Shown one piece after another: positions 10,617-60,410 of a DNA stretch of 64,000 nucleotides. The translations under genes and the position numbers were made by a program. The DNA lies in NCBI GenBank assembly GCA_964651115.1, contig CAZYXJ010000001.1, forward strand, positions 106,509-170,508. Direction: 5' to 3'. A model generated the notes under the pieces. The model was not told where the DNA came from. It made no database searches and worked only from the letters and a program-made list of their open reading frames with translations. The first letter of the stretch is position 1. Each line of letters begins with the position of its first letter. Origin of the DNA: an uncultured Candidatus Saccharibacteria bacterium (lineage in GTDB: Bacteria; Patescibacteriota; Minisyncoccia; Phycocordibacterales; JACOZG01).

Positions 10617-11024
10617 TCAGCTCGATGGCTGAGATTGGTTATTGTACGTGAGACCAACCCGACCAACCCAGAGAACGTCCGTGAACATCCCGGGCTCATT
10701 CCAAATAAACGAAACCTGTCGGACGACCACCTCATCGCCCACCTCCAACTTAAGGGAGGGGTCGATCAGGGCCGCGTAAATGCGGTTGGAGCTTTCTTTC
10801 CTCACCACCGCCCGACCGAAGGGAAAATCCGGGGTGGACGCAAGGAGGCGAACGACCGTCACCTTGCCGGGGAAATCCTTAACGCTAATCGGCCGGCCGA
10901 CGGACAAGTTAATCCGCTCAATCTCCCTCTGAACAGGATCGGTGGGCTTGCTACGCAACATCAGGTAGAGACAAACACCAAACAACCCCAAGGCCACCAC
11001 CTTACCAACACGATCCATAGTCAT
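10617..11024 (-). CDS. Hypothetical membrane-anchored protein
   Basis: 135 aa with an N-terminal TM. No recognisable motifs. Confidence 0.4.
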   Translation of the reverse strand: MTMDRVGKVVALGLFGVCLYLMLRSKPTDPVQREIERINLSVGRPISVKDFPGKVTVVRLLASTPDFPFGRAVVRKESSNRIYAALIDPSLKLEVGDEVVVRQVSFIWNEPGMFTDVLWVGRVGLTYNNQSQPSS

Positions 11025-11052
11025 GGCAGAACCCCTTTCTTTAATTAGATAA

Positions 11053-11075
11053 TGATCAACACCGAGTGTTGATCA
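11053..11075. repeat. REP-like palindrome TGATCAACAC-CGA-GTGTTGATCA (copy 1)
   Basis: Perfect 10-bp inverted repeat with a 3-nt spacer in an intergenic region. It is identical to the copy at 28586-28608 and closely related to the copies flanking the Y1 transposase gene. Confidence 0.7.
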
Positions 11076-11146
11076 GGAAAAGAAATCCAACGACATCCAA
11101 CACCACAATACATCAATATAAAATTTTGTCAATAGAGACAGTGGCC

Positions 11147-12253
11147 CTAAAAAAGATTGGCGATATCGTGGAAGGTAATCACCGCCATCAGCACCAATAG
11201 CAAGACAAAACCAAGGCCATTGGCCCAATTAGCAATAGCCGGACGAATGGCTGAACCTTTAATTTTTTCGATCAATAAAAACAATAGGCGTCCCCCATCA
11301 AGCGCCGGAAAGGGTACCAAGTTAATCACCGCCAAATTAATCGAGATCAGGGCCGTAAAGCTAAGCAGGTAAACCAAGCCCATCACTCGGGCATTCCCCA
11401 CTAGACCAACCAGGCCCACTGGCCCCGTGACGCTAGCGATAATTGATTCGCCCCGCCAAGCTTGCGCGACGAACGAAGCGAGCGCCGCGGCCGTGGCCTT
11501 AGTGAGCGAGACGGTCAAGTTAAAACCCTCCGCGATCGCGCGATGAGGCAGGACCTGACGCAGAGCAATCTCCTCCATCGCGATACCCAAAACTGGCGCC
11601 GAACCAGCTTGGAGCGATCGAGGCATTAGTTCGACCCGAGCCACAGGTAAATCCTTGCCGGTCAATACCCGTCCTCGACGATACTCCAAAATAATTTCCT
11701 CAGCGGGATGATCGGCGACAAAATCTTGCACCAGTTCTGGCGTTAATTGACCGGTGGTTCGGACCGCCGCGGCCCCTAAAGCGACGAGCTCGTCGCCGGG
11801 CCGGAGGCCCGCGGCCGCGGCGGGCGAATCGGGCATGACGTTAGTAACCAATAGTCGAGATGGCACACCGGGCATCTCGGCGGCCGGCGAAGGTAATCCA
11901 ACCATCAAGCCAACCGAAATTAATCCCCAAGCTAAAATTAAATTAAAAAAGACACCCGCGGCCAAGACCACGGCCTGTTGCCAGCGTGGCTTGTTAACCA
12001 AACTTCGACCCGAATCTACTCCCGTTAACGAATCGGCGTCTGGCGTCTCGCCAAAAATTTTGACAAACCCACCAAACGGAATAAGGTTGATCGAATATTC
12101 GGTTTCGCCCCGACGCCAGCCAACTAATTTGGGTGGAAAGCCCAAACCAAACTCGTCCACCCGAACACCAAAATATTTAGCCGCCAAAAAGTGCCCCAAC
12201 TCATGAGACAAAATCAGCACGGCTAAAATGATAAAAAATAAAACTAAGGTCAT
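11147..12253 (-). CDS. rseP: RIP metalloprotease RseP (site-2 protease, M50 family with PDZ domain)
   Basis: 368 aa. It has an HELGH zinc motif in the first TM, a central PDZ-like region and a C-terminal LDGG motif. Confidence 0.85.
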   Translation of the reverse strand: MTLVLFFIILAVLILSHELGHFLAAKYFGVRVDEFGLGFPPKLVGWRRGETEYSINLIPFGGFVKIFGETPDADSLTGVDSGRSLVNKPRWQQAVVLAAGVFFNLILAWGLISVGLMVGLPSPAAEMPGVPSRLLVTNVMPDSPAAAAGLRPGDELVALGAAAVRTTGQLTPELVQDFVADHPAEEIILEYRRGRVLTGKDLPVARVELMPRSLQAGSAPVLGIAMEEIALRQVLPHRAIAEGFNLTVSLTKATAAALASFVAQAWRGESIIASVTGPVGLVGLVGNARVMGLVYLLSFTALISINLAVINLVPFPALDGGRLLFLLIEKIKGSAIRPAIANWANGLGFVLLLVLMAVITFHDIANLF

Positions 12254-39260: not shown

Positions 39261-39333
39261 TCCGCGATAGCTCAGTTGGTAGAGCGCCTCGCTGTTAACG
39301 AGGATGTCCCAGGTTCGAGCCCTGGTCGCGGAG
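39261..39333 (+). tRNA. tRNA-Asn (anticodon GTT)
   Basis: A manual cloverleaf fits: acceptor tccgcga/tcgcgga, D-arm gctc-agttggt-agagc, anticodon arm cctcg-ctGTTaa-cgagg, variable loop atgtc, T-arm ccagg-ttcgagc-cctgg, discriminator G. There is a TATAAT 19 nt upstream. Confidence 0.85.
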
Positions 39334-40959
39334 CCTGACTGACAAAAGTGGCACATGATGCCACTTTTGTCGTATGTGGCCTGGCTTTTTAGAGGTTCGA
39401 GCGTGCTCTATTTCCTGCATAATAGCTTCTCGTGCTTTTATGAGGCTCAAAAAGAAAGAACTGTAAGAAAGCTGGATCTTTTTGTCTGAAATGGTGAGGT
39501 TCGAGCCAAGGCATGCGAGTATCGCTCTTTTGGTCTTTTCATCGCCATTTGCGTACCAAAGGTGGGCGTAGCAGGCAAAGTCAAAGGTTTGCTCTGAAAG
39601 TTCAGCCCATTGTTCTACAGCCTTATTCTTGATCTTCAACTCGTCCTCAAGAAGGCCCTTCTTTCTGAGTAGTTCAGACTTTAAGGACTGGTATTCCTGT
39701 TCGCCGATAACGGTTCGATTCTTGTTTGATGGTGCAGTAAAGTTAAGGGTCAAAGATTGCAGCTGCTGCGTTACTTCTTCACATTCCTTGTGCTTGGTCC
39801 TTATTGCGATTGAATCACTCTCAGCCTCATTCTTGCGGACCTCATGGACATGGCGAACCGCCCAGTCACGATACTCCTCTGAAATTCTTATATCTTTAAG
39901 GATCGCCCCGATCTGTAAGTGTAGTAGTTTTACTTCCACATGCTTTTCAGTACAGCCAGCGTCATATCTCTTTTTGGTGCAGTTGTAGTAAACGTAATGA
40001 TGGACGTTACCGTTCTTGCAACGCTTTACTTTGGCTTGGGCAGTGATGCTGCAACCACAGGTGGCACATTTCATAAGACCAGTAAAAGCAAACATCCTCT
40101 CTTCGTGTCGTGGGCGCGGTTGGTTGGTCCTACCCATAACCTTTTGTACCTGATCAAATTCTTCTTTGGTTACCATCGGCGCGTGCGCTCCTTTATTCCA
40201 ATTACCACTGTGGAGCGGAAACTCAAACCAGCCATAATAAAATGGGTTACCGAGGACTGCATAAATTGCTGATCGAGAAAGATGTTCACCGCCGATATTT
40301 CTACGTGGGACCGTTCGGAGATTCAACTGTTTTCTTGAAATATTCCAAATCTGGGCCATTGAATAATTGCCGGTAAGCGCAAGATCAAAGAGTCTTCGGA
40401 CCAACGGGAATCTATCAGGATCTTTTTCTAAGGTCTTGTAACCCTTTTGTTTATTGGGTGTGTTGAGATATCCAATCGGCGCACCGCTTGGCATCCAACC
40501 ATCTCTCACTTTCTTTTGCAGACCTCGCTTTACATTCACTGATAGGTCTCGAATAAACTGATTGGCCATGCCAAGTTCTACTTGCATCATGAGCACGTTG
40601 TCTGTTGGGTAATAGGTTCGACCGAAGGTAACGATTTGAGATACGGCACTCTGCTGCAACATCCAACTTATCTGGCCACCATCGACAGGATTACGGGCTA
40701 GGCGGTCCAGTTTCCAGCATAGGATGCCATTGGCTTCGCCTTTATAGATCCTCTCAAGCATTGAGTTGAATACCTTCCTACCTGGTTTCTTGGCTGATTG
40801 TGATTCTTCAAGGATATCCAGGATGTGTAAACCTTGATCCTTTGCAATCTTCAAAAGCTCGTCTTTCTGGGCATCTATGGACGCTGCCTGGCGATCTTCT
40901 GCCTCGCTGGATTTACGAGCATAGAGGAAGTATTTAATTGGTTGGTTTGTCTGGTTCAT
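39295..40959 (-). CDS. Large serine recombinase (integrase/resolvase family)
   Basis: 554 aa. The N-terminal catalytic domain has YARKSSEAEDRQAASIDAQ (nucleophile Ser region) and a recombinase domain, followed by a zinc ribbon (CATCGC...CTKKR) and a coiled-coil. The C-terminal ~25 codons read through the hairpin and tRNA 3-prime end on the opposite strand. Confidence 0.8.
   Translation of the reverse strand: MNQTNQPIKYFLYARKSSEAEDRQAASIDAQKDELLKIAKDQGLHILDILEESQSAKKPGRKVFNSMLERIYKGEANGILCWKLDRLARNPVDGGQISWMLQQSAVSQIVTFGRTYYPTDNVLMMQVELGMANQFIRDLSVNVKRGLQKKVRDGWMPSGAPIGYLNTPNKQKGYKTLEKDPDRFPLVRRLFDLALTGNYSMAQIWNISRKQLNLRTVPRRNIGGEHLSRSAIYAVLGNPFYYGWFEFPLHSGNWNKGAHAPMVTKEEFDQVQKVMGRTNQPRPRHEERMFAFTGLMKCATCGCSITAQAKVKRCKNGNVHHYVYYNCTKKRYDAGCTEKHVEVKLLHLQIGAILKDIRISEEYRDWAVRHVHEVRKNEAESDSIAIRTKHKECEEVTQQLQSLTLNFTAPSNKNRTVIGEQEYQSLKSELLRKKGLLEDELKIKNKAVEQWAELSEQTFDFACYAHLWYANGDEKTKRAILACLGSNLTISDKKIQLSYSSFFLSLIKAREAIMQEIEHARTSKKPGHIRQKWHHVPLLSVRLRDQGSNLGHPR
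39341..39371. other. Perfect 13-bp hairpin immediately 3-prime of tRNA-Asn
   Basis: gacaaaagtggca-catga-tgccacttttgtc. It is a possible tRNA terminator and/or recombination site, and lies inside the 3-prime end of the recombinase reading frame. Confidence 0.6.
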
Positions 40960-41878
40960 GGTTTATTTGTGTGTCAGGTATGTGGGTCTCATTTACTGGC
41001 TCTGCCCATTTTTCACCGTTTTTTAACGGTGGTTCCGTAGTATCTGATTGGATACTGCCGACTTCCCGTAAATTTCCCGCTATATCGGGAAAATTATCTG
41101 CGTTTTCTGTGGGTCTCACTACCTCACTTAAGGGTATCTTTCCTTCATAGGCTGTCTCAACGACATCATGCCCAGAAGGCTCTTGAATAGCAACTTGTTC
41201 CGGTAGCTGCCACTTATGCATTTTCCTCTTTAGAACATCTCCGATGCTAGTTAAAGAATTCGGGGATTTATTTATTTGGTTAGTTAGAGTATCTACGTTA
41301 ATACTACGGTTTCTACGCTTTCGGATACTACGGAGATGTATATCTGGATACTGCGCAACTGAATCTTTAAGTTTTAGACGCCCTTTAATATGGGCTATGC
41401 TTTTCCAAAAATCGACCGACTTAAAGTAGTACAGGTTCAGTGTTTTGAATCCGCTCTTTGTCTGGACCACACCAAGAATGCTGCACTCAACAAGAAGTCG
41501 GACCGCATTGGCTACATAGTTTCTGTTTTTCTCTCCGGTTAGGTCCTGGATGGTAGTCAGACTTGGCCACGCAACTTGTGTTTGCGTATTTCCATGCTTC
41601 AGAATGGCGCAGTAGACAAGTGTACAAATCTTTGGCAACTTTTCCATATAGCCATGCTCCACAAATTCGTTCTCTACGAAAAACCGAGTTGGTTTTCTCT
41701 TGCCGCGTAACAGGGACCGGTCAATCTGATTCTTCAGTTCCTCGATCTTCGCCTTGTGGTAGGCATGGGCTATCTCCACTTTGTTCTTCTTCGGGTCCAA
41801 CCACTCGAGGAAATACTTCTCGTTGTTGTTCATATTCTTTAAGCCACACCTTTTTGACAGGCCGATAGACAAGGTCAA
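40934..41878 (-). CDS. Hypothetical winged-helix DNA-binding protein (possible replication initiator)
   Basis: 314 aa with a central wHTH-like segment (WPSLTTIQDLTGEKNRNYVANAVRLLVECSILGVV). It sits downstream of the iteron-like repeat region. The start codon is uncertain, with several in-frame Met. Confidence 0.4.
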   Translation of the reverse strand: MTLSIGLSKRCGLKNMNNNEKYFLEWLDPKKNKVEIAHAYHKAKIEELKNQIDRSLLRGKRKPTRFFVENEFVEHGYMEKLPKICTLVYCAILKHGNTQTQVAWPSLTTIQDLTGEKNRNYVANAVRLLVECSILGVVQTKSGFKTLNLYYFKSVDFWKSIAHIKGRLKLKDSVAQYPDIHLRSIRKRRNRSINVDTLTNQINKSPNSLTSIGDVLKRKMHKWQLPEQVAIQEPSGHDVVETAYEGKIPLSEVVRPTENADNFPDIAGNLREVGSIQSDTTEPPLKNGEKWAEPVNETHIPDTQINHEPDKPTN

Positions 41879-42098: not shown

Positions 42099-42124
42099 AA
42101 GTGTTATGTATCGTAGACCCAATT

Positions 42125-42475
42125 TCGTGCAAAATTGCGTGCATTACTTTTGGACCGTCCGATTTGTCTATTCTGAAGCCCTATTAATCCCTAACTGCAG
42201 GAATTACTTCGGACCAAAGAACTACTTAATCCTAGTGCTTAAAAAAAGCAAAACATGGTGTATTACTTTTTATGGCTAGGATTATGGGTTTATCCTAAGA
42301 GATATAAAGTTCCTAACTGTAGGAATTACTCTTACCTCTTAGAACTGTCTTAATCCTATTGTCAAAAAAGTGAAAAATGCGTTGCATTACTTTCATCTCC
42401 TTAGACAGTCATATCCTAAAATCAAATGTGGTGCATTTCGGTGTGCATTACTTTTCCTTTAGGACCAGGTAAGTA
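42125..42475. repeat. Iteron-like degenerate direct repeats (~122-bp units) in a 590-bp AT-rich intergenic region
   Basis: TG(C/T)ATTACTTT occurs at 42140, 42259, 42383 and 42444. CCTAACTG(C/T)AGGAATTACT occurs at 42189 and 42312. There are recurring TTAATCCTA and GGACC motifs. Confidence 0.65.
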
Positions 42476-42586
42476 TGAGGTCCCAATAAGTGCAAATTAG
42501 TGGGTATTGGCCGAGACAACGTAAAAAGCCCTGAATAGGCTTGGAAAAGCGTACACAGGGCAATTTAGGGGCTAATTACGGGCCTT

Positions 42587-48109: not shown

Positions 48110-49294
48110 TTATTTATCCTCGCTCTCTTTTGGCTCAGGCAACTCCAAAGACTCGATCTTCTGCAGTTGGATAACTCCGCTCAAGTCACCATAGATACCG
48201 ACTGTATTTTTGATGACCTTCTGTATCTGCTTTTCTTTTTCGGACCAAGACTTTTCAAAATAAAGACGCTCTTTATCCAAGGAAGTCTTCATGCTTGAAA
48301 ACGTCTCTACGATGACCTCAATCTTTTGTTTGAATTCATTGCCAGACAGATAAGCATAGAGAATCTCCATCTTTTCATTTTTACCCACAGACATAGACTT
48401 TTCGCGACACACAAGCTCAAGGGTATTTCGTAATGCCGTTGCTATCGAGATTGCCAGTTTAATATCACAAACCCAGACTCCTTCGCGTTGAGCTATGCCT
48501 TCCAAACCACCAGGCAATACGGAAGATACGATAACTGCAATGTCGGCCTTAACACTTCGCTGATCTTCTTTCAGTTTCTTAATCCAACTGTCGGTCCAAG
48601 CCTTGGTTTTTTTTGATTCCCAGATAATCTTTCCGCATTCAACACCAGCTTTAGTCTTAACAGTTTGTATAACATCCGCACCGGTAACACCCTTAGGGAC
48701 CGGAGAAATATCATCGTAGATAAATTCTGCCTTGAGAAGTTCCTCAAGGGCTATCTCTTGGACCTCGCCTTGAGTCTGTTGTGATCCCTGCTCAAGCTTT
48801 CGGGCTAGTTCATCCTTCGCTTTTGTGGCATCGGAAAGCTGCTTATTGAGCTGATCTATTTTTGCCTGTTGTGCCTCTGTCGCTTTCTTTGAAGCCTCTT
48901 CTTCAATTGTCTTTCTTTCTGCATCAAGCTGACGCGCCTTTTCTAGTTCAAAAGCATCCTTTTCATCTTTGAGCTTTTGAGTGGCCTTACGCAACTCAAG
49001 CTCATTCTTGTTAGCTTCTTTAAGCTTGAGGTCCTTATCAGCTAGCTGTTCCTCAAGGAACTTCTTGTCAGAGGCTGCTTCTTTTTCTACTCGTTCCCTT
49101 ATTTGCTTTTTCAACAGTTCTTCTATTTCTTGCAACTCTTTCTTGTGTTCCTTCTCTTTTGCTGCGCGTGTAGCTTTTTCTTGTTCTTCAAAATCCTTTC
49201 TGATTTTACTTTCAAGCTGATGCGTTAAAACTTCATCAATCGAGATTGATTTTCCGCAATGAGGACAACTAATATTTCTTGTATCGTTAGTCAT
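48110..49294 (-). CDS. Zinc-ribbon plus long coiled-coil protein (DUF2130-like) embedded between hsdM and hsdS
   Basis: 394 aa with an N-terminal CPHCGKSISIDE (CxxC), a ~170-aa Lys/Glu-rich coiled-coil and a conserved-looking C-terminal globular domain. Proteins of this layout are recurrently found inside type I R-M loci. Confidence 0.5.
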   Translation of the reverse strand: MTNDTRNISCPHCGKSISIDEVLTHQLESKIRKDFEEQEKATRAAKEKEHKKELQEIEELLKKQIRERVEKEAASDKKFLEEQLADKDLKLKEANKNELELRKATQKLKDEKDAFELEKARQLDAERKTIEEEASKKATEAQQAKIDQLNKQLSDATKAKDELARKLEQGSQQTQGEVQEIALEELLKAEFIYDDISPVPKGVTGADVIQTVKTKAGVECGKIIWESKKTKAWTDSWIKKLKEDQRSVKADIAVIVSSVLPGGLEGIAQREGVWVCDIKLAISIATALRNTLELVCREKSMSVGKNEKMEILYAYLSGNEFKQKIEVIVETFSSMKTSLDKERLYFEKSWSEKEKQIQKVIKNTVGIYGDLSGVIQLQKIESLELPEPKESEDK

Positions 49295-49298: not shown

Positions 49299-51281
49299 TT
49301 AGAGTTGCTTTAAAAGAGTGAGTAATTCATTCTCGACTTTTTCTATGTCGGACTCGATGGCCTCGAGGCTGCGTGGAGCTTCGTATTTGTAGAAATATCG
49401 CGTGAATGGGATCTCGTATCCAACCACACCAATTTTTCCATCTTTATGATCCTGGACCGACTCGTTTATCCAAGCATCAGGGACATACGGTTTCACTTCT
49501 TTGTTGAAATAATCTTTGATATCCACCTCGTATGGTACGTTTTCAAAATCCCGCAACTCACCGTCTGGTTCAGGGTTACCATCCTTATCAGTACAAATTG
49601 TTGCTTCCTCGTCACGCACACCGACTATCGATATAAGTTTCTTATACTGACCTGCTGTGAACTTAACGGCGACGTATTGTTTAAGTCCCGCTTCGATTCT
49701 TTCATCTAGAACTTTTTTGCTTGTTATAATTTGATTCTCAAAGGATTCAATAAAATCTTTCATGCCATTCTTGTTGTCTTTGATGTCAAAAGCAACAAGG
49801 AGTTCTTTTACCTTTTCTGGGGTGAAATCAAACTTAAGACGGAGAGATCGCTCGATCGTGATCTGTCGATAAGCAAAGTCGGTAGTCTTGAAGATCTTTG
49901 AATGTTCGCTTTCATCAAACTTCTCGTAGATGTCCAATATCTTTTTCTTTGATTCCGCGTCAATCTCGTGACGCTTGCTGCCGAGACTCTTGCGAGTCTT
50001 CTTAAAGAAGGCGCGAGCGTCGATAAGCTGGACCTTACCTTTTCTTTCTTTTGACTTTCTGTTCGTCACAAACCAGAGATACGTATTGATACCGGTGTTA
50101 TAGAAAAGTTGATCTGGCAAAGCCACAATCCCTTCAAGTAAATCTTTTTCAAGAATCCAACGGCGTATTTCGCTTTCGCCGCTTCCTGCGTCGCCTGTAA
50201 ATAGAGGGGACCCATTATGAACGATCGCAATACGTGAGCCGCCATCTTTTTCAGATTTCATCTTTGATATGAGATGCTGCAAGAACAAGAGCTGTCCGTC
50301 GGAAATACGTGGAGTACCTGCACCGAATCGGCCTGCGTATCCGCGAGACGCTTCGCGCTCTACGGCATCCTTATCTTTCTTCCAATCAACTCCGTAGGGT
50401 GGATTTGAGAGCCCATAATCGAATACTTCCGCAAAGAATTGGTCGTTAGCGAGCGTACTTGCCTTTGAATGGTCTTTCTCACCACCTCGAATAAGATCAG
50501 GGTCATCACCTTTGATAAGCATATCTGACTTTGCCATAGCGTAGGTCACTGAGTTGAGTTCCTGGCCGTAAAGGAAAATGTCGGCTTCTTTGTTTATGTT
50601 TTCTAGAATGTAATCCTTGGCAACAGAAAGCATTCCGCCCGTACCGCAGGCAGGGTCGTAAATCTTTTTGATAACATGAGGCTTCTTAAGATCCTTTTTA
50701 TCAGGTGAAAAGAGCATCTCAGTCATGAGTCCGATCACATCTCGTGGTGTGTAGTGTTCTCCGGCGGTCTCATTAGACATTTCAGAAAATTTTCGGAGAA
50801 GTTCTTCAAAAACATGACCCATCTGATAGTTATCTACTTTCGAAGGATGCAGGTCTACCTTGTTAAGCTCCTGGATCACATAAAACAACAGATCGCCACC
50901 TTCAAGACGTTCAAGTTGTTTGCTGAAATCAAACTTTTCAAAAATGTCCTGGATGTTTTTGCTGTAGCCATTTATATATTGCTTGAAATTCTTTGCGAGA
51001 TGCTTAGGTTCGCCAAGGATAGTCTTAAAATCGTAGTCGGAGATATTGTAAAAGGCAGTACCCGATGTCTTCTTGAGAATCGGATCGAGATCGTTTACCT
51101 TGCCTTTGTACTCGTTATATTTCTCGAGGACCGATGCCTTAGTATCAGCAAGAATGGAATCCAGGCGCTTTAAAACCACCAGAGGTAATATTACGTCCTG
51201 GTATTCGTGCTGTTTCCAACCGCCGCGCAATATGTCGGCGATGCTCCATATCATTGATGTTTTTTGGTTGAAGTTTTCCAT
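49299..51281 (-). CDS. hsdM: Type I restriction-modification DNA methyltransferase subunit M
   Basis: 660 aa with an HsdM N-domain, SAM-binding DPACGTGGML and the catalytic NPPYG motif. Confidence 0.9.
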   Translation of the reverse strand: MENFNQKTSMIWSIADILRGGWKQHEYQDVILPLVVLKRLDSILADTKASVLEKYNEYKGKVNDLDPILKKTSGTAFYNISDYDFKTILGEPKHLAKNFKQYINGYSKNIQDIFEKFDFSKQLERLEGGDLLFYVIQELNKVDLHPSKVDNYQMGHVFEELLRKFSEMSNETAGEHYTPRDVIGLMTEMLFSPDKKDLKKPHVIKKIYDPACGTGGMLSVAKDYILENINKEADIFLYGQELNSVTYAMAKSDMLIKGDDPDLIRGGEKDHSKASTLANDQFFAEVFDYGLSNPPYGVDWKKDKDAVEREASRGYAGRFGAGTPRISDGQLLFLQHLISKMKSEKDGGSRIAIVHNGSPLFTGDAGSGESEIRRWILEKDLLEGIVALPDQLFYNTGINTYLWFVTNRKSKERKGKVQLIDARAFFKKTRKSLGSKRHEIDAESKKKILDIYEKFDESEHSKIFKTTDFAYRQITIERSLRLKFDFTPEKVKELLVAFDIKDNKNGMKDFIESFENQIITSKKVLDERIEAGLKQYVAVKFTAGQYKKLISIVGVRDEEATICTDKDGNPEPDGELRDFENVPYEVDIKDYFNKEVKPYVPDAWINESVQDHKDGKIGVVGYEIPFTRYFYKYEAPRSLEAIESDIEKVENELLTLLKQL

Positions 51282-52587: not shown

Positions 52588-52932
52588 TTATCGTCCAAAT
52601 GGGATTTTATTTCGTATAAAAAAGTCTGAAACCCTTTCTTGATCTCCCTTGCAGCCCACATGCCACACCTCAATAGTCCGGGCATGATTCATCGACTTGT
52701 AGTCATAAATCGTTACGACAGTCGGCTTAGGGCCAGGCAGTCTGAAAGCCCATTCCACCTGAGTCTTCCAGTCACCCGATTTCCATGGACCATCCTTAAA
52801 CCTGTCGTGTGGCTCTCCAAACTGGGCGACAAGGTCATGGTAGGTACAAATCGCGTACCCTATAAAACCTGTGTGGTTTACTTCGTTTGGACGTGCGTTT
52901 TTATATCCTTTTTTCATGGCACGAACGAACAT
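52588..52932 (-). CDS. Hypothetical protein
   Basis: 114 aa with no recognisable motifs. Confidence 0.3.
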   Translation of the reverse strand: MFVRAMKKGYKNARPNEVNHTGFIGYAICTYHDLVAQFGEPHDRFKDGPWKSGDWKTQVEWAFRLPGPKPTVVTIYDYKSMNHARTIEVWHVGCKGDQERVSDFFIRNKIPFGR

Positions 52933-52999
52933 ACCGGAAGGTTCTGAGGAAGTCTAGCGGGACCTTTACTTTTTTGACTTCTAGGAATAATGTTGCCAC

Positions 53000-53308
53000 A
53001 TGAGCGAATTATTTATTACTGTGGTTGGAGGTCTTGTTGTCCTTATTTTAGGCGCTTGGCTTGGCCTTAGTGGTTCTACGAAAGTGCGCGTTGAAGGTGG
53101 TCACAAAGTTAAGAAAACTGGAAAACTGCTTATCCTCATCTCTGTTGCGATGATCATCGGCGGACTTTCCTGGGCGGGCAGCAATGCTCCGGCTCAAGGT
53201 GGTATTGATTTGCATATACCTGGAATGCTCTACGGAATCACTCTTGCAGGATATGGTGTGCTTCTATTAATCGTCGGTAAAGTCGTTGCATGGTGGCAAC
53301 GTCCTTAA
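53000..53308 (+). CDS. Hypothetical small membrane protein
   Basis: 102 aa with three hydrophobic helices. Confidence 0.35.
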   Translation: MSELFITVVGGLVVLILGAWLGLSGSTKVRVEGGHKVKKTGKLLILISVAMIIGGLSWAGSNAPAQGGIDLHIPGMLYGITLAGYGVLLLIVGKVVAWWQRP

Positions 53309-53538
53309 AATATATGCAATTAACTGATAAAGACCTTGAGAGTTTTCAGGCACTTTATAAAAAACATTTCAATAAAGATATTTCGCGTGCCGAAGCTCTC
53401 GCAAAAGGCACACAACTTTTGACTTTAATGAAGGCTGTATACAAACCCATGACGCAAGAACAGTTCGATGCTATACAGCAGCGAAGAAAAGATACCTTAC
53501 CAGCTTTAATTAAAAGGCTGGAGCAAGATCAACTTTGA
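53290..53538 (+). CDS. Hypothetical small helical protein
   Basis: 82 aa. Its start overlaps the upstream membrane protein gene. Confidence 0.3.
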   Translation: MVATSLKYMQLTDKDLESFQALYKKHFNKDISRAEALAKGTQLLTLMKAVYKPMTQEQFDAIQQRRKDTLPALIKRLEQDQL

Positions 53539-53963
53539 AACTCAACCTCAAAAGGATACATTCCCATTCCGCATGATCCTTGGAGTGTGCCAAGTTTGCC
53601 GCTACCAATATCAATATCTGTAGATCCTGTCTGAGGTAATAATTTTGATATGTTCATGCTTGGTATTCGGACCGATGACGAGCAGTCGAAGGTTCCCTTT
53701 GTATTGAAGCGAATGATAGTTGGTATACCTGCCTTAGCAATACTCTTGCGAGGTTGATAACCACCTTTGGCATTTATCTCTATGATTTGTTTTCCGTCTA
53801 CAATGGTGACGTTGTTTGCGTTTACTACTTGTCCGGTATCACCACCGTTTCTTGTAAACATGAAAGCACCTCCGATGAGGATTACTGCCACAATGCTTGA
53901 AATAATAGTTGCTTTCATAATTAGAATTATACTAGAAGTTAAATATTGGCGGTATGACTCCAA
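53529..53963 (-). CDS. Hypothetical membrane-anchored Cys/Met-containing protein, possibly metal-binding
   Basis: 144 aa with an N-terminal TM and a C-terminal beta region with CSSS...SCGMGMY. It is the last gene of the copper cluster. Confidence 0.35.
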   Translation of the reverse strand: MESYRQYLTSSIILIMKATIISSIVAVILIGGAFMFTRNGGDTGQVVNANNVTIVDGKQIIEINAKGGYQPRKSIAKAGIPTIIRFNTKGTFDCSSSVRIPSMNISKLLPQTGSTDIDIGSGKLGTLQGSCGMGMYPFEVEFQS

Positions 53964-54963
53964 TTACCACCAAGCTATTAATAAGATTGAAAAGCGCGAA
54001 CATGATCACGATTAGTCCTGCAGTCTTGAAGAACACTCCAGCTTTGGAACTCTTTTGAATACTGAATGAGCTGAAGCTGATGAGTGCTAAAACTGGGAGT
54101 GTACCAAGCGCAAATGCGAGCATAGTAAGTCCTCCTGTGAGGAAACTACCCGTAGTGAGCGTATAGAGCTGCATCGACTGAGTAAATCCGCATGGTAGGA
54201 AAAAGGTTGCTATACCAACAAGAAGCGGAGTGAGGGTGTGATTGAACTTGGATACACCATGAGCATGCTTAGCAATAAATTTCGGCATCGATGGTTGAAG
54301 TTTTTTTGCCCAGTGAAAAGTATCGAGAAGATTGATGCCGAGAATGAGCATGACGATGCCGATAATGAGGCTCAATATAAATGTAGCGGAAGTATTGAGT
54401 GTGAAGGCTGACCCAATCGCACCAATTATGCCACCGAGAATAAAGAACGAAGCGATTCGACCTCCATGGAACATGAGCTGGGGTCGAACCTTATCACCCT
54501 CTTTAGCAAATGTAGCCGACATCGAAAGGACCAATCCACCCACAACAGCCATGCATGTTGAAAGCGATGCGATTATACCAATCACAAATGCTGTGCCGTA
54601 GGTTACATTGCCAGCGCTAACCAGATTTACAATTCCCATTTTCTGCAGGACCACAAAGAGTACGGCAAAGACAAGTGCAATTGGGACAGCAATCTTGAAA
54701 TCTCCCCATTTGGCATTGTGCTGCTGTTTTTCTACTGAGACAGTGTAGCCATGAGGTTTAAGCGGAATTGTCAGTTCCTCTGCAATCTGTTCTGGTGTCT
54801 TATTGCCAAAGTCTCCGGTAACTTCTACCGAATGATTCTTTAGACTCGATTTTACGTGAGTTATATTTGGCAAATCGCCAAGTTCGCTTTCTGTCATGAG
54901 CACACAAGCGTTGCAGTGCATGCCGTGTACGTGAAAGGTATATTTTTGGATTTGTGTATTCAT
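53932..54963 (-). CDS. Heavy-metal-associated (HMA) domain fused to DsbD_2/TauE-like polytopic membrane protein
   Basis: 343 aa with an N-terminal GMHCNAC metal-binding motif and a ~7-TM domain with conserved intramembrane Cys (LSTCMAV, FLPCGFT). Confidence 0.55.
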   Translation of the reverse strand: MNTQIQKYTFHVHGMHCNACVLMTESELGDLPNITHVKSSLKNHSVEVTGDFGNKTPEQIAEELTIPLKPHGYTVSVEKQQHNAKWGDFKIAVPIALVFAVLFVVLQKMGIVNLVSAGNVTYGTAFVIGIIASLSTCMAVVGGLVLSMSATFAKEGDKVRPQLMFHGGRIASFFILGGIIGAIGSAFTLNTSATFILSLIIGIVMLILGINLLDTFHWAKKLQPSMPKFIAKHAHGVSKFNHTLTPLLVGIATFFLPCGFTQSMQLYTLTTGSFLTGGLTMLAFALGTLPVLALISFSSFSIQKSSKAGVFFKTAGLIVIMFALFNLINSLVVIGVIPPIFNF

Positions 54964-54968
54964 GATAA

Positions 54969-57296
54969 TTATAGTTTTTTAGCCTTAATGCGAAGTGAGT
55001 TCGACACCACGGATACCGACGACATAGCCATGGCAAATCCAGCAAAGACTGGGTTCAAGAGCCATCCAAAGACCGGATACAAAGCTCCGGCAGCGAGTGG
55101 AATGCCGACAATGTTGTAAATGAATGCCCAGAAAAGGTTCTGTTTTATTCCTCGCATGGTGATCTTTGAAAGTTTGATAGCTTTCACCAGCTTTGAAATA
55201 TCTCCGCCGAGAAGCGTGATACCGGCCGACTCTATAGCAACATCTGTTCCGGTCCCCATAGCGATACCGACATCTGCCTGCGCAAGTGCTGGAGCGTCAT
55301 TTACGCCGTCACCAGCCATTGCAACCACTCGACCTTGTGATTGCAAATCCTGAATCTTTTTCAACTTATCTTCAGGAAGCACATGTGCAACAACATCATC
55401 AATGCCAACAAGTGAGGCAATATATTTTGCGGCCTTTTCATCATCTCCAGTAAGCATAACCACCTTGATACCGAGAGCATGGAGGTTCTTTACCGCTTCC
55501 ACTGATTCCGCCTTTATTTCATCCGCCACCATGACAAAACCGAGGACCTTTTCTTTGGTAGCGAGAATAACTGGTGTCTTGCCTTGGGAAGTAAACTCAT
55601 TAAGCTTAGCAGTGTCAAAAGAAACTCTAAGGTCGCTTACTAGTTTTGTATTACCAACAAAGTATTCAGTGTCTTTAATGGATCCTTTAAGTCCCTTGCC
55701 CTGGATACCCTCAAAGTTAGAGACATCTGATACGGAGATATTTTTCTCCTGGGCATAATTTACGATCGCATGAGCAATAGGGTGTTCAGATTTTTTCTCA
55801 AGAGAAGCGAGGATCGAAACCAGCTCATCATCTTTTAAGTCAGAAAGATTTTGTATATCTACGAGAGTCGGTTTTCCTTTAGTGATCGTCCCTGTTTTAT
55901 CAACCACCACTGTATTTACCTTATGTAGTTTTTCAAGTGTTGCAGCATCCTTGATGAGAATGCCTTCTTTAGCTCCCTTACCAACTCCCACGATGATTGC
56001 TGTGGGTGTAGCGAGACCAAGGGCGCATGGACATGCGATAACCAGTATTCCCACAAACGACACAAGACCAAACGAAAGAGCTTGAGAGAAGCCAAGATAT
56101 TGCGAACCTACGATAAGCCACGTCCCGAGAGTGAGGAATGCAATCACCAGAACAATTGGCACAAAGATTGCTGAAATCTTGTCTGCCAGTGCTTGAATTG
56201 GAGCTTTGCTACCTTGAGCATCTTCAACCATCTTTATAATCTGGGCCAGGAGTGTTTCGGACCCAACCTTGGTGGCCTTGAAAGTAAATGAACCGCTTGT
56301 GTTTATGGTTCCGGATACGACACTGTCACCGATTTTCTTCTGAGCAGGCATCGGCTCTCCAGTAACCATCGACTCATCAATAAAAGAGGACCCTTCGGTG
56401 ATAACGCCATCTACAGGAATCTTTGCGCCTGGCTTAACGATAATAAGATCACCATGCTTGACCTCATTTACTGAAATCTCCACTTCCTTTCCGTCACGAA
56501 TAACCAGTGCTGTTTTTGCCTGCAGGTTAAGGAGTTTTTCTATAGCATCACCTGTCTTTATTTTCGATCGAGCTTCAAGATATTTGCCAAGGGCTATAAA
56601 AGTAATGACCACAATCGTGACATCATAGTATTGGTAGTCCACGTTTATAAATGGACGTAGAGCTTCTTCAAAAGCAGTGACAGCAAAGCTATATAAAAAT
56701 GCGGCAGTGGTTCCAATACCGATAAGCGTATCCATGTTTGCCTTGCCGTATCTAAGGAATCGATAAAAACCCATGAGGTATGGTTTACCGACAACAAACA
56801 GGATATATGTAGCTAGTATCGGAAGAAGATGGTGGATAAATTCTTTGATCGTATAGCTCATTTCAGGAACCGCCTTGTATTGAGCGAGAATATCCCATCC
56901 CATAACGAGTGCTGCGAAAATTGCAAGAGGAATGGCAGAGAATAATTTTGTTCGCATATCAGCAACTTCAGCAAGCTTCTCTTTCTTGGACTGATTGAGT
57001 CCCAGATGTGCCGCATGTTCATCTGCCGACATACCCATCGCTTCTGCTGATTGACTACCATGGTCATGTGACATTTCTTGGTCCAGAGCCAAGGAGTAGC
57101 CAAGTGGCTCTATTTTCTTTGAAAGCTCCTGCGCACTTGTTTTTGATTCATCAAAGACAACCTTCGCTTTTTCGGTCCCATAATTTACTTCAGCAGAATG
57201 GACTCCCTCAGTCTTCTTGAAGGTCTTCTCAATAATGCCAGCGCAAGAAGCGCAATGCATTCCTTTTACTCTGTATGTTTTAGTGGGATGATTCAT
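54969..57296 (-). CDS. copA: Copper-translocating P1B-type ATPase
   Basis: It has an HMA domain GMHCASCAG, the TM metal site CPC (ACPCALG), the phosphorylation site DKTGTIT and the hinge GDGVNDAPAL. The start was chosen at MNHPTKTYRVKGMHC (57296) rather than the upstream ATG at 57362, which would overlap csoR by 62 nt. Confidence 0.88.
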   Translation of the reverse strand: MNHPTKTYRVKGMHCASCAGIIEKTFKKTEGVHSAEVNYGTEKAKVVFDESKTSAQELSKKIEPLGYSLALDQEMSHDHGSQSAEAMGMSADEHAAHLGLNQSKKEKLAEVADMRTKLFSAIPLAIFAALVMGWDILAQYKAVPEMSYTIKEFIHHLLPILATYILFVVGKPYLMGFYRFLRYGKANMDTLIGIGTTAAFLYSFAVTAFEEALRPFINVDYQYYDVTIVVITFIALGKYLEARSKIKTGDAIEKLLNLQAKTALVIRDGKEVEISVNEVKHGDLIIVKPGAKIPVDGVITEGSSFIDESMVTGEPMPAQKKIGDSVVSGTINTSGSFTFKATKVGSETLLAQIIKMVEDAQGSKAPIQALADKISAIFVPIVLVIAFLTLGTWLIVGSQYLGFSQALSFGLVSFVGILVIACPCALGLATPTAIIVGVGKGAKEGILIKDAATLEKLHKVNTVVVDKTGTITKGKPTLVDIQNLSDLKDDELVSILASLEKKSEHPIAHAIVNYAQEKNISVSDVSNFEGIQGKGLKGSIKDTEYFVGNTKLVSDLRVSFDTAKLNEFTSQGKTPVILATKEKVLGFVMVADEIKAESVEAVKNLHALGIKVVMLTGDDEKAAKYIASLVGIDDVVAHVLPEDKLKKIQDLQSQGRVVAMAGDGVNDAPALAQADVGIAMGTGTDVAIESAGITLLGGDISKLVKAIKLSKITMRGIKQNLFWAFIYNIVGIPLAAGALYPVFGWLLNPVFAGFAMAMSSVSVVSNSLRIKAKKL

Positions 57297-57300
57297 ATTT

Positions 57301-57567
57301 TTATTTGCGCTTGAGCTTATAAACCTTAAGAATCTCATCGACAGCTTTCTTTTCACTGCCATGCTTCATTTGGTGAACGACATGTGTAGAAAGATGATTT
57401 TCAAGGACCAGGTTCTCAATCCCAGTGAGTGCTTCCTTAATAGCTGATGCTTGAGTAATAATATCGATACAATACTTCTCATCCTCCACCATCTTTTGGA
57501 GTCCTCTAATCTGTCCCTCAACAATTTTTAATCGGCGAATAGCTTTTGTTTTTATGTCTTGTCTCAT
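57301..57567 (-). CDS. csoR: CsoR/RcnR-family copper-sensing repressor
   Basis: 88 aa. It has a ..YCIDI...H...H.. arrangement of metal ligands and a coiled-coil fold signature. Confidence 0.85.
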   Translation of the reverse strand: MRQDIKTKAIRRLKIVEGQIRGLQKMVEDEKYCIDIITQASAIKEALTGIENLVLENHLSTHVVHQMKHGSEKKAVDEILKVYKLKRK

Positions 57568-57575
57568 ATATAGGT

Positions 57576-57604
57576 ATGATACCCCTAGGGGGTATATGAG
57601 TCAA
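57576..57604 (-). promoter_or_regulatory. csoR-copA promoter (TTGACT-17-TATCAT) with embedded CsoR operator ATACCCC-TAG-GGGGTAT (57579-57595)
   Basis: On the minus strand, -35 TTGACT and -10 TATCAT are separated by 17 nt containing a perfect 7-bp GC-rich inverted repeat. This matches known CsoR operators (ATACCC..GGGGTAT type). The ATG is ~8 nt after the -10, implying a leaderless or very short-leader mRNA. Confidence 0.7.
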
Positions 57605-57746
57605 CTGTGGATTTCTACACCAGAGCCAATTGTTCGCTCGTCGGCCGGACCAAAGGATAGATTCCATCCTTCAAATTAGGGATGTAATGGTAGTTACTTG
57701 TGGTCCTAAAATAGGTAGTTATTTCATCAACGACGCGGAGCAAAAA

Positions 57747-57775
57747 TTGACAAGTTAATCTAATTACTCTATGGT
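57747..57775 (+). promoter_or_regulatory. Near-consensus sigma70 promoter TTGACA-17-TATGGT
   Basis: Divergent from the csoR promoter, ~60 nt upstream of the ORF at 57838. Confidence 0.5.
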
Positions 57776-57837
57776 AAAAACTAGAGTTTGTTATCAGAAA
57801 AATTGAAACCCTCAAACCCAAGAAAGGGCGGTGTATT

Positions 57838-58134
57838 GTGGGTAAGTTGTCTCAACAGACAACCAGGAGCCTTGTTATAGAAGCATCTTCAGAAAATTGT
57901 TCAAAAGAACGCCGAGAAGAAATTCGCGGCGAGCTCATGAGAGCAATCGATTTCACAGAGGAAGACAGTCTCTATCGTGGACCCGTTGCCATCACGAGAG
58001 AATTGTTTCTCCAAGCAACGGAGGCGAACCCCCGACACCTTCTTGGTTTATTGCCTATGTTCCTTATGATGTGCGGTAATGGGGTCGAAGGGGAAAAGAA
58101 CCTCACCGCCAAAATCGATTGGTCTCTCGTATAA
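57838..58134 (+). CDS. Hypothetical protein
   Basis: 98 aa, preceded by a good promoter and followed by a strong terminator. Confidence 0.35.
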   Translation: MGKLSQQTTRSLVIEASSENCSKERREEIRGELMRAIDFTEEDSLYRGPVAITRELFLQATEANPRHLLGLLPMFLMMCGNGVEGEKNLTAKIDWSLV

Positions 58135-58136
58135 AG

Positions 58137-58197
58137 CCCGCTCCGGCGACGAACGGAAACCTTCCGTTTGTCGTATCGGCGGCGGGTTTTCTTTTTC
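58137..58197 (+). terminator. Rho-independent terminator
   Basis: Stem gacgaacgg/ccgtttgtc with a G-U wobble, extended by outer GC pairs, followed by ttttcttttt. Confidence 0.6.
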
Positions 58198-58288
58198 CAA
58201 AAAGTTCTCCTCCTTCGCTTAAGCTTCGGAGGACAGGTCACATCCTCAACCAGGTGGAGCCAGTTTCGAATTTTGATATACTTCGCTT

Positions 58289-58798
58289 ATGAAAATACCA
58301 TTCTTGCTTCTACTCGACGGCATGACTGGCTCAGGCAAAACGACCACTTCCGAACTTCTTGCTAAGCAGATTCCAAGATTGGCAACCATCGGCATTGATC
58401 GAGTCAAACTATTTCTTTCTGATTTTGAACGTGGTGACAGAGACAACGATATTGCCAGGGACATTATTCTATCGATGACACAAATATATTTTGATAACAA
58501 TATATCTGTTATTGTCGATCAACCCATCAGAACGCGAGAAATTAACGTGTACGAAGCTATTGCGAAAAAATATTCCGTTCCGATCTATAAAATTCAGCTT
58601 GTGACATCGCCCGAAAATGCATTTAAGCGAATAGTTAACCGAATGAAGACTTGGACCAACCCCACCTCCGAGGAGCAAGTCAAAAAGAATATCTCATTCT
58701 TTAAAAGTAAAAAAGATATGGGTTTTACTCAAATAGATACCACCGCCCTACAACCTAATCAAGTTGCCGAACAAATAATCGAATTACTTAATTCCTAA
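58289..58798 (+). CDS. P-loop NTPase / small-molecule or nucleotide kinase-like protein
   Basis: 169 aa with Walker A LLDGMTGSGKTT at the N-terminus. Its size and layout resemble AAA_33/zeta-toxin-like kinases. Confidence 0.5.
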   Translation: MKIPFLLLLDGMTGSGKTTTSELLAKQIPRLATIGIDRVKLFLSDFERGDRDNDIARDIILSMTQIYFDNNISVIVDQPIRTREINVYEAIAKKYSVPIYKIQLVTSPENAFKRIVNRMKTWTNPTSEEQVKKNISFFKSKKDMGFTQIDTTALQPNQVAEQIIELLNS

Positions 58799-58891
58799 TT
58801 TTCCCTTATTATTGACAATATATACTTTGCAGTGTATAAAGCTGAAAGCTCTTTCACACAACCAAGGCCGATAAGGCGAAAGGAGTTAGTC

Positions 58892-59398
58892 ATGAGGTGG
58901 AAAAAGTTCCGTAAGCTGCAAGCTCAATACCCCTTCCTCGAACACGATCTGGGCTGGGGCTGTGTACTACCCAAAATCAAAAAGTTCGTCAGGACAAAGG
59001 TCGACTACATTGCCTTCCGTCCGTTCGACGAGCTCGAACTGAACGCAAAGCCAGTCTCGACCGGCACACCGCTCCAGAGCGATTACGTCCACGTAAAGAT
59101 GGTGGAGTACTACAAGACAGTCGACTACCACCTGATTTTCCACATTGAGGGCGAGGAGCAAGGTGCTCGCCTCCGCTACGTGACCGACCAAATCGGAGAC
59201 GGCAGCATCCAAGCTCACATCGACGATGTCACCAAATGGTTTGAGGGTTGCGAACTCTTTCGCGGCAAGAAACTCATCTGGGAACGCGTCATCAAACAGG
59301 CCACGAGCGGGAGCACGCTGATGGGCATGTCCAACATGAGCTTGGAAATCTATGAATTTCCCCCAACGCTCAATCCCGCTCAACAGAAGGTCGCCTAA
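58892..59398 (+). CDS. Hypothetical protein
   Basis: The start was placed at MRWKKFRK because AGGAG lies 8 nt upstream. 168 aa with no recognisable motifs. Confidence 0.4.
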   Translation: MRWKKFRKLQAQYPFLEHDLGWGCVLPKIKKFVRTKVDYIAFRPFDELELNAKPVSTGTPLQSDYVHVKMVEYYKTVDYHLIFHIEGEEQGARLRYVTDQIGDGSIQAHIDDVTKWFEGCELFRGKKLIWERVIKQATSGSTLMGMSNMSLEIYEFPPTLNPAQQKVA

Positions 59399-59435
59399 CT
59401 CGCGACCCAACCGCCTCAACAAAAGAGAACCATCT

Positions 59436-59759
59436 CTACGTTGAGGTGGTTTTCTTTTTGGCCAGTTTATTCAAAATATATTTCTGCGACGGACTAATTG
59501 TTTTATCTCGACGGTGGACACAACCCAGCCAACAACAGGGCCGGCGCTTGCCGCCACCAAGATCGGTCACTGCTCTCTGGAGATGCTTGTTTCTCGTCTC
59601 TATCGTCTCAACCGAGATCACCCAACAAATCCATTCGTTACGCGCCAGTGGCGTAATGCTTTCCCAAGTAGCCAGAGCCTTGGGAGCAGCGAGCAGGGCC
59701 CGGCGCAAGTCAGCGGGCAGTTGGTGCGCCGGGCCGCCAGAAATTTTTTTCTTAACCAT
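59436..59759 (-). CDS. YdeI/OmpD-associated family protein (DUF1801-like)
   Basis: 107 aa. LPADLRRALLAAPKALATWESITPLARNEWICWVISVETIETRNKHLQRAV matches the conserved pattern of this family. Preferred over the overlapping plus-strand ORF. Confidence 0.5.
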   Translation of the reverse strand: MVKKKISGGPAHQLPADLRRALLAAPKALATWESITPLARNEWICWVISVETIETRNKHLQRAVTDLGGGKRRPCCWLGCVHRRDKTISPSQKYILNKLAKKKTTST

Positions 59760-59845
59760 CGTTAACCATTTTAGCAGGTCTTGTTAAAGCGGTTTTCTTT
59801 TTGATAATTGTGGTGTAAGGTAGAAAATAGAAAGGAAGGATCAAA

Positions 59846-60370
59846 ATGTCTCTGTTACCGCCTCTATACATAGGTAGTGTCGTCAAGGTAATTGGCGACC
59901 ATTGTGATTTTTTGGGCAAAGAAGGCCAGGTTGTGGGCTTAGAATCAGCAGAAAAGGAAGGGGGTAAGGAGATCGCCCGCGTCTGGTTTGGCCGGGAAAT
60001 CGATTATCTAAACGACCGCCGAATACAGGATGATCTGGGACCACACGCAATTGAGCCCCCACCATCCAACAAGCAAGCTGACGATCCTCGAACTTGGTCC
60101 TACTCCCGCGACGATCTAACGATCTGCTCCACGTGGAGCATGAAAACCCTAGCCACCAGATACTTTGGCAATCACTGGAATTGCTGGCAAGAACCGCTGA
60201 CACTCTTTGTCTCCGGGACTAATCCCTGCCAAGTTGCCAAATGCCCCCAACTGTCTGTCCGGCGGATTATCGTTAACATTTGGGGCACAGTCTGCACCGC
60301 TGATGTCTGCACTGCCTGCGCGGTCAAATATCACGGAAGAATGTTTGAGATCTTCCCCTGGCGTCAGTAA
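59846..60370 (+). CDS. Hypothetical protein with Cys-rich C-terminus
   Basis: 174 aa with a good SD (aaggaagg) upstream and C-terminal CxxxxC...C..C..C spacing. Confidence 0.4.
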   Translation: MSLLPPLYIGSVVKVIGDHCDFLGKEGQVVGLESAEKEGGKEIARVWFGREIDYLNDRRIQDDLGPHAIEPPPSNKQADDPRTWSYSRDDLTICSTWSMKTLATRYFGNHWNCWQEPLTLFVSGTNPCQVAKCPQLSVRRIIVNIWGTVCTADVCTACAVKYHGRMFEIFPWRQ

Positions 60371-60382
60371 GGACAGCCAACG

Positions 60383-60410
60383 AACCCCTAGACGGAAAAG
60401 TCTAGGGGTT
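60383..60410. other. Perfect 11-bp hairpin between convergent genes
   Basis: aacccctagac-ggaaaa-gtctaggggtt. The flanking U-run is weak, so it may be a terminator or a regulatory stem. Confidence 0.4.

Follow-up and report, generated by a model that had tools for sequence, protein, structure and literature searches.

Genes embedded in type I restriction-modification (R-M) operons are often defence genes, as supported experimentally by Payne et al. 2024 (bioRxiv 10.1101/2024.01.29.577857). The paradigm of a back-up effector tied to restriction is provided by the PrrC/RloC anticodon nucleases, whose accessory genes lie among the hsd genes and are expressed along with these; PrrC, an ABC ATPase fused to a tRNA-Lys RNase, lies between hsdS and hsdR. 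Another such group is that of the ShdA/RmuC nucleases (PF02646): ShdA is a DNase in vitro, protects as a single gene and occurs in defence islands (PMC10270631), and RmuC-like coiled-coil nucleases are reported within Pseudomonas type I R-M loci (PMC11090510). Here we analysed a gene in a comparable position. It is located between hsdM and hsdS in a 64,000-nucleotide stretch of contig CAZYXJ010000001.1 (the whole stretch is called the window below) and encodes a protein of the DUF2130 family. On balance, and with some reserve, we favour the view that this gene is an autonomous accessory cassette within the type I operon, encoding a metal-dependent DNase of the PD-(D/E)xK superfamily which would provide a second layer of defence or exclude mobile genetic elements (MGEs), and which would not be a subunit of the restriction enzyme. 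The family, its superfamily assignment and the phenomenon of embedding are already known: Steczkiewicz et al. 2012 included DUF2130 in their PD-(D/E)XK census, with the function ‘Unknown’ (PMC3424549). The pairing with OLD-family ATPases and the shuffling among unrelated type I systems are observations of the present analysis.

The DUF2130 protein shares with the ShdA/RmuC nucleases a non-catalytic N-terminal tip, a long stalk and a C-terminal PD-(D/E)xK domain (predicted to be a DNase in DUF2130), and both groups occur in defence islands as well as within type I R-M or DISARM-like loci. They differ in their tip and in their distribution. ShdA is anchored in the membrane, and its coiled coil leads to a DNase of the RmuC type; it is reported in Pseudomonas only, whereas the window protein begins with a soluble CPxC hairpin in place of a transmembrane (TM) helix and DUF2130 proteins are spread across many phyla. 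PF02646 gave no match to the window protein at E<=0.01, and hhalign comparison of two family alignments (A1 and A4) with E. coli RmuC returned probabilities of 0.1–0.2%, a weak test since the RmuC side is a single sequence. DUF2130 may be regarded as a functional analogue of Shield ShdA, its nearest precedent in function, while its membership of the RmuC/ShdA family is not supported.

With PrrC/RloC, the gene has in common its nested position and its probable co-expression with the hsd genes. In contrast to PrrC, it has no ATPase domain, its predicted fold is of the DNase type and its relatives are mostly found outside type I loci. The evidence is of the same kind as that behind the guilt-by-embedding (PDC) candidates of PADLOC, which are uncharacterised genes nested in type I R-M; PDC-S54, its neighbour in the operon, is such a candidate. 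The Rad50/SbcC zinc hook provides an analogy only: a lone CxxC also ends a long helical stalk there and could share zinc between two chains, but the hook caps an intramolecular antiparallel coiled coil within an ABC ATPase, and the DUF2130 CxxC is found at the extreme N-terminus of a nuclease.

Family, fold and architecture of the DUF2130 protein

The proteins of the window were scanned with Pfam, NCBIfam and PADLOC-DB v2.0.0. An initial annotation, made from the sequence without database searches, had likened the protein to DUF2130. The Pfam search bore this out, with a match to DUF2130 (PF09903; COG4487) that scores 212.9 bits, the cut-off being 26.7 (E=6.3e-63), and in which residues 143–382 of the protein are aligned with positions 2–249 of the 255-position model; PF09903 is also present in 120 of the 120 homologues listed. 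The 394-amino acid open reading frame of that annotation, its coordinates and its spacing of 1–4 nt from hsdM and hsdS all agree with ours, and the C-terminal globular domain that it proposed is seen. Neither this protein nor that of PDC-S54 matched NCBIfam or PHROGs, no Hsd domain was found in the DUF2130 protein with Pfam, NCBIfam or PADLOC, and searches of PDB chains with the sequence and with the family profile returned only zinc-finger-like and coiled-coil noise. The family is a large one, with 2,920 matches at E<=1e-5 in a word-indexed search. With the C-terminal domain alone as query, 3,705 clusters (50% identity) were obtained at E<=1e-3; in all of them the DUF2130 domain is C-terminal, behind an N-terminal extension of about 110–380 residues. 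As the family has no assigned function, membership explains little, and nothing sets the window protein apart from its relatives.

The gene is tightly inserted. The hsdM stop codon (49299–49301) is followed by four nucleotides (ACAT) and then by the DUF2130 ATG at 49294, and the DUF2130 stop codon TAA (48110–48112) is separated by one base from the hsdS ATG at 48108. A Shine-Dalgarno-like GAGGA precedes the hsdS ATG and no such motif is present in the junction sequence ahead of the DUF2130 ATG, which fits with translation of DUF2130 being coupled to that of hsdM. DUF2130 would be co-transcribed with the operon, with translational coupling probable.

An AlphaFold2 (AF2) model of the protein was obtained with a mean pLDDT of 74, most of the nuclease core being at 72–85. 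In this model, a PD-(D/E)xK core (about residues 175–276) is followed by a C-terminal helical bundle (278–368). The core has the order alpha-beta-beta-beta-alpha-beta (helix 175–190, strands 195–198, 208–213 and 219–228, helix 236–248, strand 252–257); D207 opens strand 2 and E226-S-K228 closes strand 3. Conservation was examined on an alignment of 128 DUF2130 representatives (33–74% identity), in which G176, E180, D194, G202, G205, D207, E226, K228, K240 and F321 are invariant. The catalytic tetrad E180, D207, E226 and K228 is intact in the window protein. The linker at 169–180 carries the invariant QGSQQTQGEVQE, in a region of low confidence in the model, and the motif conserved family-wide in this linker is QGSQQxQGE. 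Against the PDB, the best Foldseek matches are without exception PD-(D/E)xK nucleases (BstEII, Bax1, the SPARDA nuclease, EcoT38I, MspJI, DdmD and BamHI), weak (E about 1e-3) but consistent; BFVD returned restriction endonucleases of the Mrr type as well as other PD-(D/E)xK proteins, the lowest E-values being 3e-10. The modelled protein has the fold of the PD-(D/E)xK superfamily with an intact active site, and its substrate is presumably DNA.

At the other end of the protein, residues 7–18 are modelled as a beta-hairpin bearing a CPxC knuckle (C10/C13), of which C10, P11 and C13 are conserved at 90% or more. The ‘zinc-ribbon’ of the initial annotation is retained in its CxxC, but not as a four-ligand ribbon, only a single knuckle being present: 118 of the 128 representatives have exactly one CxxC, there is no conserved pair of Cys or His residues after it, H25 is variable, and C220 and C276 sit in the distant nuclease domain. 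A zf_UBZ match remained under its cut-off (16.8 versus 25.6 bits). We also considered C220 and C276 as the missing zinc ligands and dropped the idea, as C276 is present in only 30 of the 128. A lone CPxC knuckle implies that a four-ligand zinc site would require two chains, and two knuckles could share one zinc ion if the stalk dimerises. The N-terminus, MTNDTRNISCPHCGKSISIDEVLTHQLESKIRK, has no hydrophobic segment and no TM anchor, as judged from sequence and model, no dedicated TM predictor having been run.

Between knuckle and linker, residues 19–166 are predicted as one unbroken helix. It contains 19.6% K and 18.9% E, 59% of its residues being E, K, R, D or Q and 19% hydrophobic, and the family-mean hydropathy of the stalk peaks at a period of 3.65–3.85 residues. 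These data support a long amphipathic charged helix, and a dimeric coiled coil formed by it is plausible. The ‘170-residue coiled coil’ annotated initially is thus a long Lys/Glu-rich helix, as stated, but with a length of 148 residues. From the CxxC to the QGE motif the stalk measures 90–322 residues across the family, a variation expected of a spacer. In six close homologues of about 505 amino acids (P0028, P0031, P0033, P0034, P0103 and P0109) the first half of the helix is extended by an insertion of about 110 residues; their identity is 68–75% over the whole alignment and reaches 84% when the best local alignment is taken.

Recurrence and mobility of DUF2130 genes

To compare genomic contexts, one genome per GTDB species was scanned, which gave at least 472 DUF2130 relatives. 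The closest 80 (44–77% identity) were examined; most are from Patescibacteria, and the rest include Gammaproteobacteria, Bdellovibrionales and Bacteroidota. Iterative hidden Markov models were used to call type I components up to 10 kb from DUF2130. Two or more were found in 16 of the 80 loci and one in 10 more; for a random gene, a type I system would be expected at such a distance in roughly 1–2% of cases, a general estimate. In 12 of the 16 type I loci, DUF2130 occupies the hsdM-to-hsdS slot, and further type I-associated copies are present in metagenome contigs. The initial description of these proteins as recurrent passengers of type I R-M loci therefore holds for a minority of them, most relatives being elsewhere.

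Immediate neighbours were counted with Pfam and PADLOC scans in the 77 loci having a neighbour on the given side. HsdM is directly upstream in 9/77 and HsdS directly downstream in 5/77. In 14/77, the gene directly downstream encodes an ABC ATPase of the OLD family (AAA_15/AAA_21), for which the best match in PADLOC is ‘Old’ (E=5e-78). The ATPase gene starts 0–80 nt past DUF2130, usually within about 35 nt (DUF2130 being at about 10001–11200 in most of these loci). Loci with such a pair include L017/L092, L029, L030, L031, L034, L035, L037, L048, L049, L053, L055, L057 and L063; in L031, L055, L057 and L058 the pair itself stands in the hsdM-to-hsdS slot. DUF2130 and the OLD ATPase may form a two-gene module. 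Other adjoining families are Eco57I-like methyltransferases, GmrSD, HerA, MTES_1575, RhuM, Bro-N and WYL, and about half of the 80 relatives have no recognised partner.

A close counterpart is in a Candidatus Yonathbacteria metagenome-assembled genome (MAG), where a 77%-identical DUF2130 is found in the same six-gene order with a Fic gene at the same position, the hsdS-to-hsdR slot being filled by a different, unannotated gene. Other arrangements are HsdM-DUF2130-HsdS-ThsB-ThsA-HsdR; SNF2/PLD, Eco57I-like methyltransferase, DUF2130 and DUF2779; DUF2130, AAA_15 and an Eco47II type II R-M system; and, on a Chryseobacterium plasmid, WYL-DUF2130-HsdM-HsdS-...-PIN-HsdR. At the other extreme, locus L093 has DUF2130 among ordinary genes, beside PGA_cap and UDG. 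Passengers were also noted in the same two slots of related type I operons (Table 1): ThsB and ThsA between hsdS and hsdR, and Bro-N, RhuM or DUF3800 between hsdM and DUF2130.

The type I-embedded DUF2130 proteins are 56–69% identical to that of the window, while the adjacent HsdM and HsdR are merely 23–33% identical to their window counterparts; the window's hsd genes are shared (77–81% identity) only by the Fic-containing loci L011 and L016. DUF2130 being far more alike than the adjoining Hsd proteins, the gene has passed as a cassette from one type I system to another, unrelated one. In six loci another known passenger lies between hsdM and DUF2130 (Bro-N in three, RhuM in two, DUF3800 in one), and the hsdM-to-hsdS interval serves as a general passenger slot. 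Insertion in the manner of a homing endonuclease was considered as well and found unsupported, the flanking hsdM being too divergent (25–32% protein identity) to provide a common target.

DUF2130 was found in 7 of 50,697 phage records, all of them Helicobacter heilmannii prophage predictions, and on 45 plasmids, 31 of the 45 plasmid matches being Bradyrhizobium. On rhizobial conjugative plasmids, solo copies lie near relaxase or ParA genes (L103, Bradyrhizobium; L108, Mesorhizobium pMLa), and in predicted H. heilmannii prophages (L107) DUF2130 is near a ParA fragment. These settings suggest that its role may be linked to the biology of mobile elements and not to R-M alone.

Possible roles of the embedded gene

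In the reading that we favour, a nuclease domain carried by a long, charged helical stalk, whose tip is a single CPxC knuckle, would constitute a self-contained cassette inserted in the hsdM-to-hsdS slot. Its most likely role would be that of a second-layer defence or MGE-exclusion DNase, expressed with the restriction system and acting independently of it. It would then protect against phages or plasmids and would have to be restrained on host DNA. The cassette behaviour favours an autonomous module and speaks against a co-evolved subunit. Moreover, with no Hsd homology and with so many relatives away from type I genes, the protein does not appear to be a core subunit of type I R-M.

Several observations weigh against a defence cassette. 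In 54 of the 80 loci no type I component is present within 10 kb, and many of these genes lie beside ordinary ones, so that association with type I systems is not obligatory; the 80-locus sample is itself biased to the subfamily of the query and to Patescibacteria MAGs and is not a family-wide census. The protein matches no PADLOC-DB v2.0.0 family at E<=0.01, and a search of the main text and 11 supplementary files of bioRxiv 10.1101/2024.01.29.577857 found no mention of DUF2130. The literature searched holds no functional experiment on any DUF2130 protein, in agreement with the ‘function unknown’ of the initial annotation, and neither it nor PADLOC v2 documents a defence role. The Foldseek matches to solved structures are weak, at E-values of 1e-3 or above. 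As for the stalk, the 3.5-residue power expected of heptads was not above that of shuffled sequences (0.38–0.61 of shuffles reach it), contrary to the coiled coil initially annotated, and dimerisation and zinc binding we purely infer.

The nested position between hsdM and hsdS brings to mind a guard in the style of PrrC, which is cited as almost exclusively embedded in type I R-M and as activated by the R-M inhibitor Stp. DUF2130 would be held latent by HsdM/HsdS or by other methyltransferases and freed as a DNase by a phage anti-restriction protein, and the tight coupling of the genes would suit this, as would the recurrence of the slot directly past a methyltransferase, in type I loci and also after an Eco57I-like enzyme. 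However, no methyltransferase is found beside most relatives. DUF2130 proteins of 56–69% identity adjoin HsdM proteins of 25–32% identity, which argues against a conserved specific interface; in addition, another gene intervenes between hsdM and DUF2130 in the six loci above, and on the Chryseobacterium plasmid DUF2130 is upstream of hsdM. We therefore hold a guard to be unlikely. The ATPase pairs point elsewhere, to DUF2130 as the effector half of a pair with an OLD-family ABC ATPase, the window copy being orphaned or using a borrowed partner and possibly inactive alone. Validated defences in which an ABC ATPase is paired with a PD-(D/E)xK nuclease, such as HEC-02, require both genes, and the frequency of the ATPase directly downstream, together with the pairs that occupy the hsdM-to-hsdS slot, is consistent with such a module. 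Yet more than 80% of relatives have no adjoining ATPase, among them every one of the closest copies embedded in type I loci (L011, L016, L020 and L021), the catalytic residues are intact in the window protein, and its gene is kept at 97–100% identity on other contigs; that the window copy is half of such a pair is distinctly doubtful. It also seems improbable to us that DUF2130, with its roughly 3,700 clusters at 50% identity, represents a widespread and so far unrecognised class of defence nucleases with a dimeric stalk of variable length and a shared-zinc hook at its tip, acting with an OLD-type ATPase or guarding methyltransferase complexes. In the guard version DNA would be cut when a phage disables the type I enzyme, and the family would, if this were true, be a DNA-targeting counterpart of PrrC and a repeated coloniser of the hsdM-to-hsdS slot in unrelated type I systems.

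A housekeeping or plasmid-maintenance nuclease, working in recombination or repair as a functional analogue of RmuC and only incidentally placed in the operon, would account for the many relatives among ordinary chromosomal genes (e.g. L093), which allow such a role for part of the family, for the solo copies by relaxase and ParA genes, and for the long helix followed by a PD-(D/E)xK domain, a layout like that of RmuC. It fits poorly with the patchy distribution and horizontal mobility of the family, with the location of the window copy on a low-GC island, and with the commonest immediate neighbours, which are R-M, OLD, GmrSD, HerA, RhuM and Bro-N families; moreover, spacing of 1–4 nt in the operon is unlikely to be incidental, and no sequence relation to E. 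coli RmuC was detectable. Such a role is quite unlikely for the window gene. Guard, orphaned ATPase partner and housekeeping nuclease each account for less of what was observed than the favoured reading does. Lastly, the helical region gave profile matches to keratin, stathmin and Mediator coiled coils, as a structural, non-enzymatic protein (an SMC-like or cytoskeletal coiled-coil fragment) would. These matches are confined to the low-complexity helix (E 4e-4 to 1), whereas the C-terminal domain has the invariant nuclease tetrad and the nuclease fold and there is no ABC ATPase head, which makes a structural protein extremely improbable. The initial annotation had named a match to an SMC-like protein, with no family similarity, as the outcome that would speak against its proposal; what was obtained is a Pfam match and a conserved catalytic motif.

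Type I R-M operons are landing pads for immune genes, and the window operon provides a compact example. If DUF2130 protects against phages or plasmids, it would add a common single-gene defence, possibly also a DUF2130-OLD pair. If it does not, it would be one more uncharacterised nuclease passenger, a useful case and one unsurprising to a specialist.

Operon, island and other passengers

The operon has the order SoFic-HsdM-DUF2130-HsdS-PDC-S54-HsdR, all on the minus strand; successive genes are 8, 4, 1 and 4 nt apart, and PDC-S54 overlaps hsdR by 11 nt (Table 1). A scan for promoters and terminators gave nothing above shuffled expectation within the operon and a terminator-like hairpin past hsdR. 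Two accessory genes had initially been counted; there are three (SoFic, DUF2130 and PDC-S54), SoFic having been left out, and the latter two are predicted PD-(D/E)xK nucleases. Fic genes are also found near DUF2130 in L011, L016, L057, L059, L067, L102 and L103.

Table 1. Positions of the operon genes, of features at the edges of the operon and island, and of passenger genes in related type I operons (the latter numbered within their own loci)
Feature	Position	Strand	Assignment
tRNA-Asn, island left edge	39261-39335	+	ARAGORN, Rfam
Large serine recombinase, abuts tRNA-Asn	39295-40959	-	Pfam Resolvase + Recombinase + Zn_ribbon_recom
Repeat of about 31 nt, three copies	42121-42151; 42364-42394; 42425-42455		
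Terminator-like hairpin past hsdR	42526-42542		promoter/terminator scan
hsdR, restriction and translocase subunit, 993 aa	42587..45568	-	Pfam HSDR_N, SWI2_SNF2, ResIII, T1R_D3-like; TIGR00348; PADLOC REase_I
PDC-S54 candidate gene, 413 aa	45558..46799	-	PADLOC PDC-S54 E=8e-83; no Pfam match
hsdS, type I specificity subunit, 434 aa	46804..48108	-	Pfam Methylase_S; PADLOC Specificity_I E=4e-95
DUF2130-family gene, 394 aa	48110..49294	-	ORF; Pfam PF09903; AF2 model; conserved residues; Foldseek
hsdM, type I methyltransferase subunit, 660 aa	49299..51281	-	Pfam HsdM_N + N6_Mtase; PADLOC MTase_I E=1.7e-262
SoFic-type Fic protein, first operon gene, 380 aa	51290..52432	-	Pfam Fic_N + Fic; PADLOC SoFic E=1.5e-114
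Passenger genes in related type I operons	L095 9364-10751; L018 9139-9792; L019 1970-2800; L031 9155-9997		
Passenger genes in related type I operons, continued	L032 9127-9957; L050 8934-9926; L056 3191-4132		

PDC-S54 had been described initially as nuclease-like, and its conserved residues and model point the same way. In the confident AF2 model (pLDDT 85), an alpha/beta domain at the N-terminus is followed by a long helix and then by a PD-(D/E)xK-like domain at the C-terminus, and D305, E319 and K321 are invariant in the family alignment (A5), as D305...E319-x-K321. Foldseek matches of the C-terminal domain to PD-(D/E)xK nucleases are weak (NucS/EndoMS, BamHI, OkrAI and Cas4-like proteins). 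The family is small, with 150 matches and no Pfam domain, and its homologues elsewhere are solitary in islands, near integrases or recombinases.

The operon is part of a low-GC island of about 20 kb. Its GC content is 0.37–0.45 between about 40 and 58 kb, with flanks at 0.51–0.57, and is again about 0.51 by 60–62 kb. The flanks are housekeeping genes, and only for the island genes are relatives of at least 90% identity found in Candidatus Paceibacterota MAGs. On the left side are tRNA-Asn, the large serine recombinase and a helix-turn-helix protein (39261–41878). An att-like direct repeat of the tRNA-Asn end was sought at the right side of the island and none was found, so that the right boundary is not set. 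To the right of the operon (52588–60400), a copper cassette (cupredoxin, HMA-DsbD_2, CopA P-type ATPase and CsoR) is present together with a zeta-toxin/AAA_33-like gene. Finally, a repeat of about 31 nt (GTGCA...GTGCATTACTTTT) occurs three times in the 600-nt non-coding stretch just 3′ of hsdR, and at least two of its copies overlap plus-strand sites made of a hairpin and a T-run.

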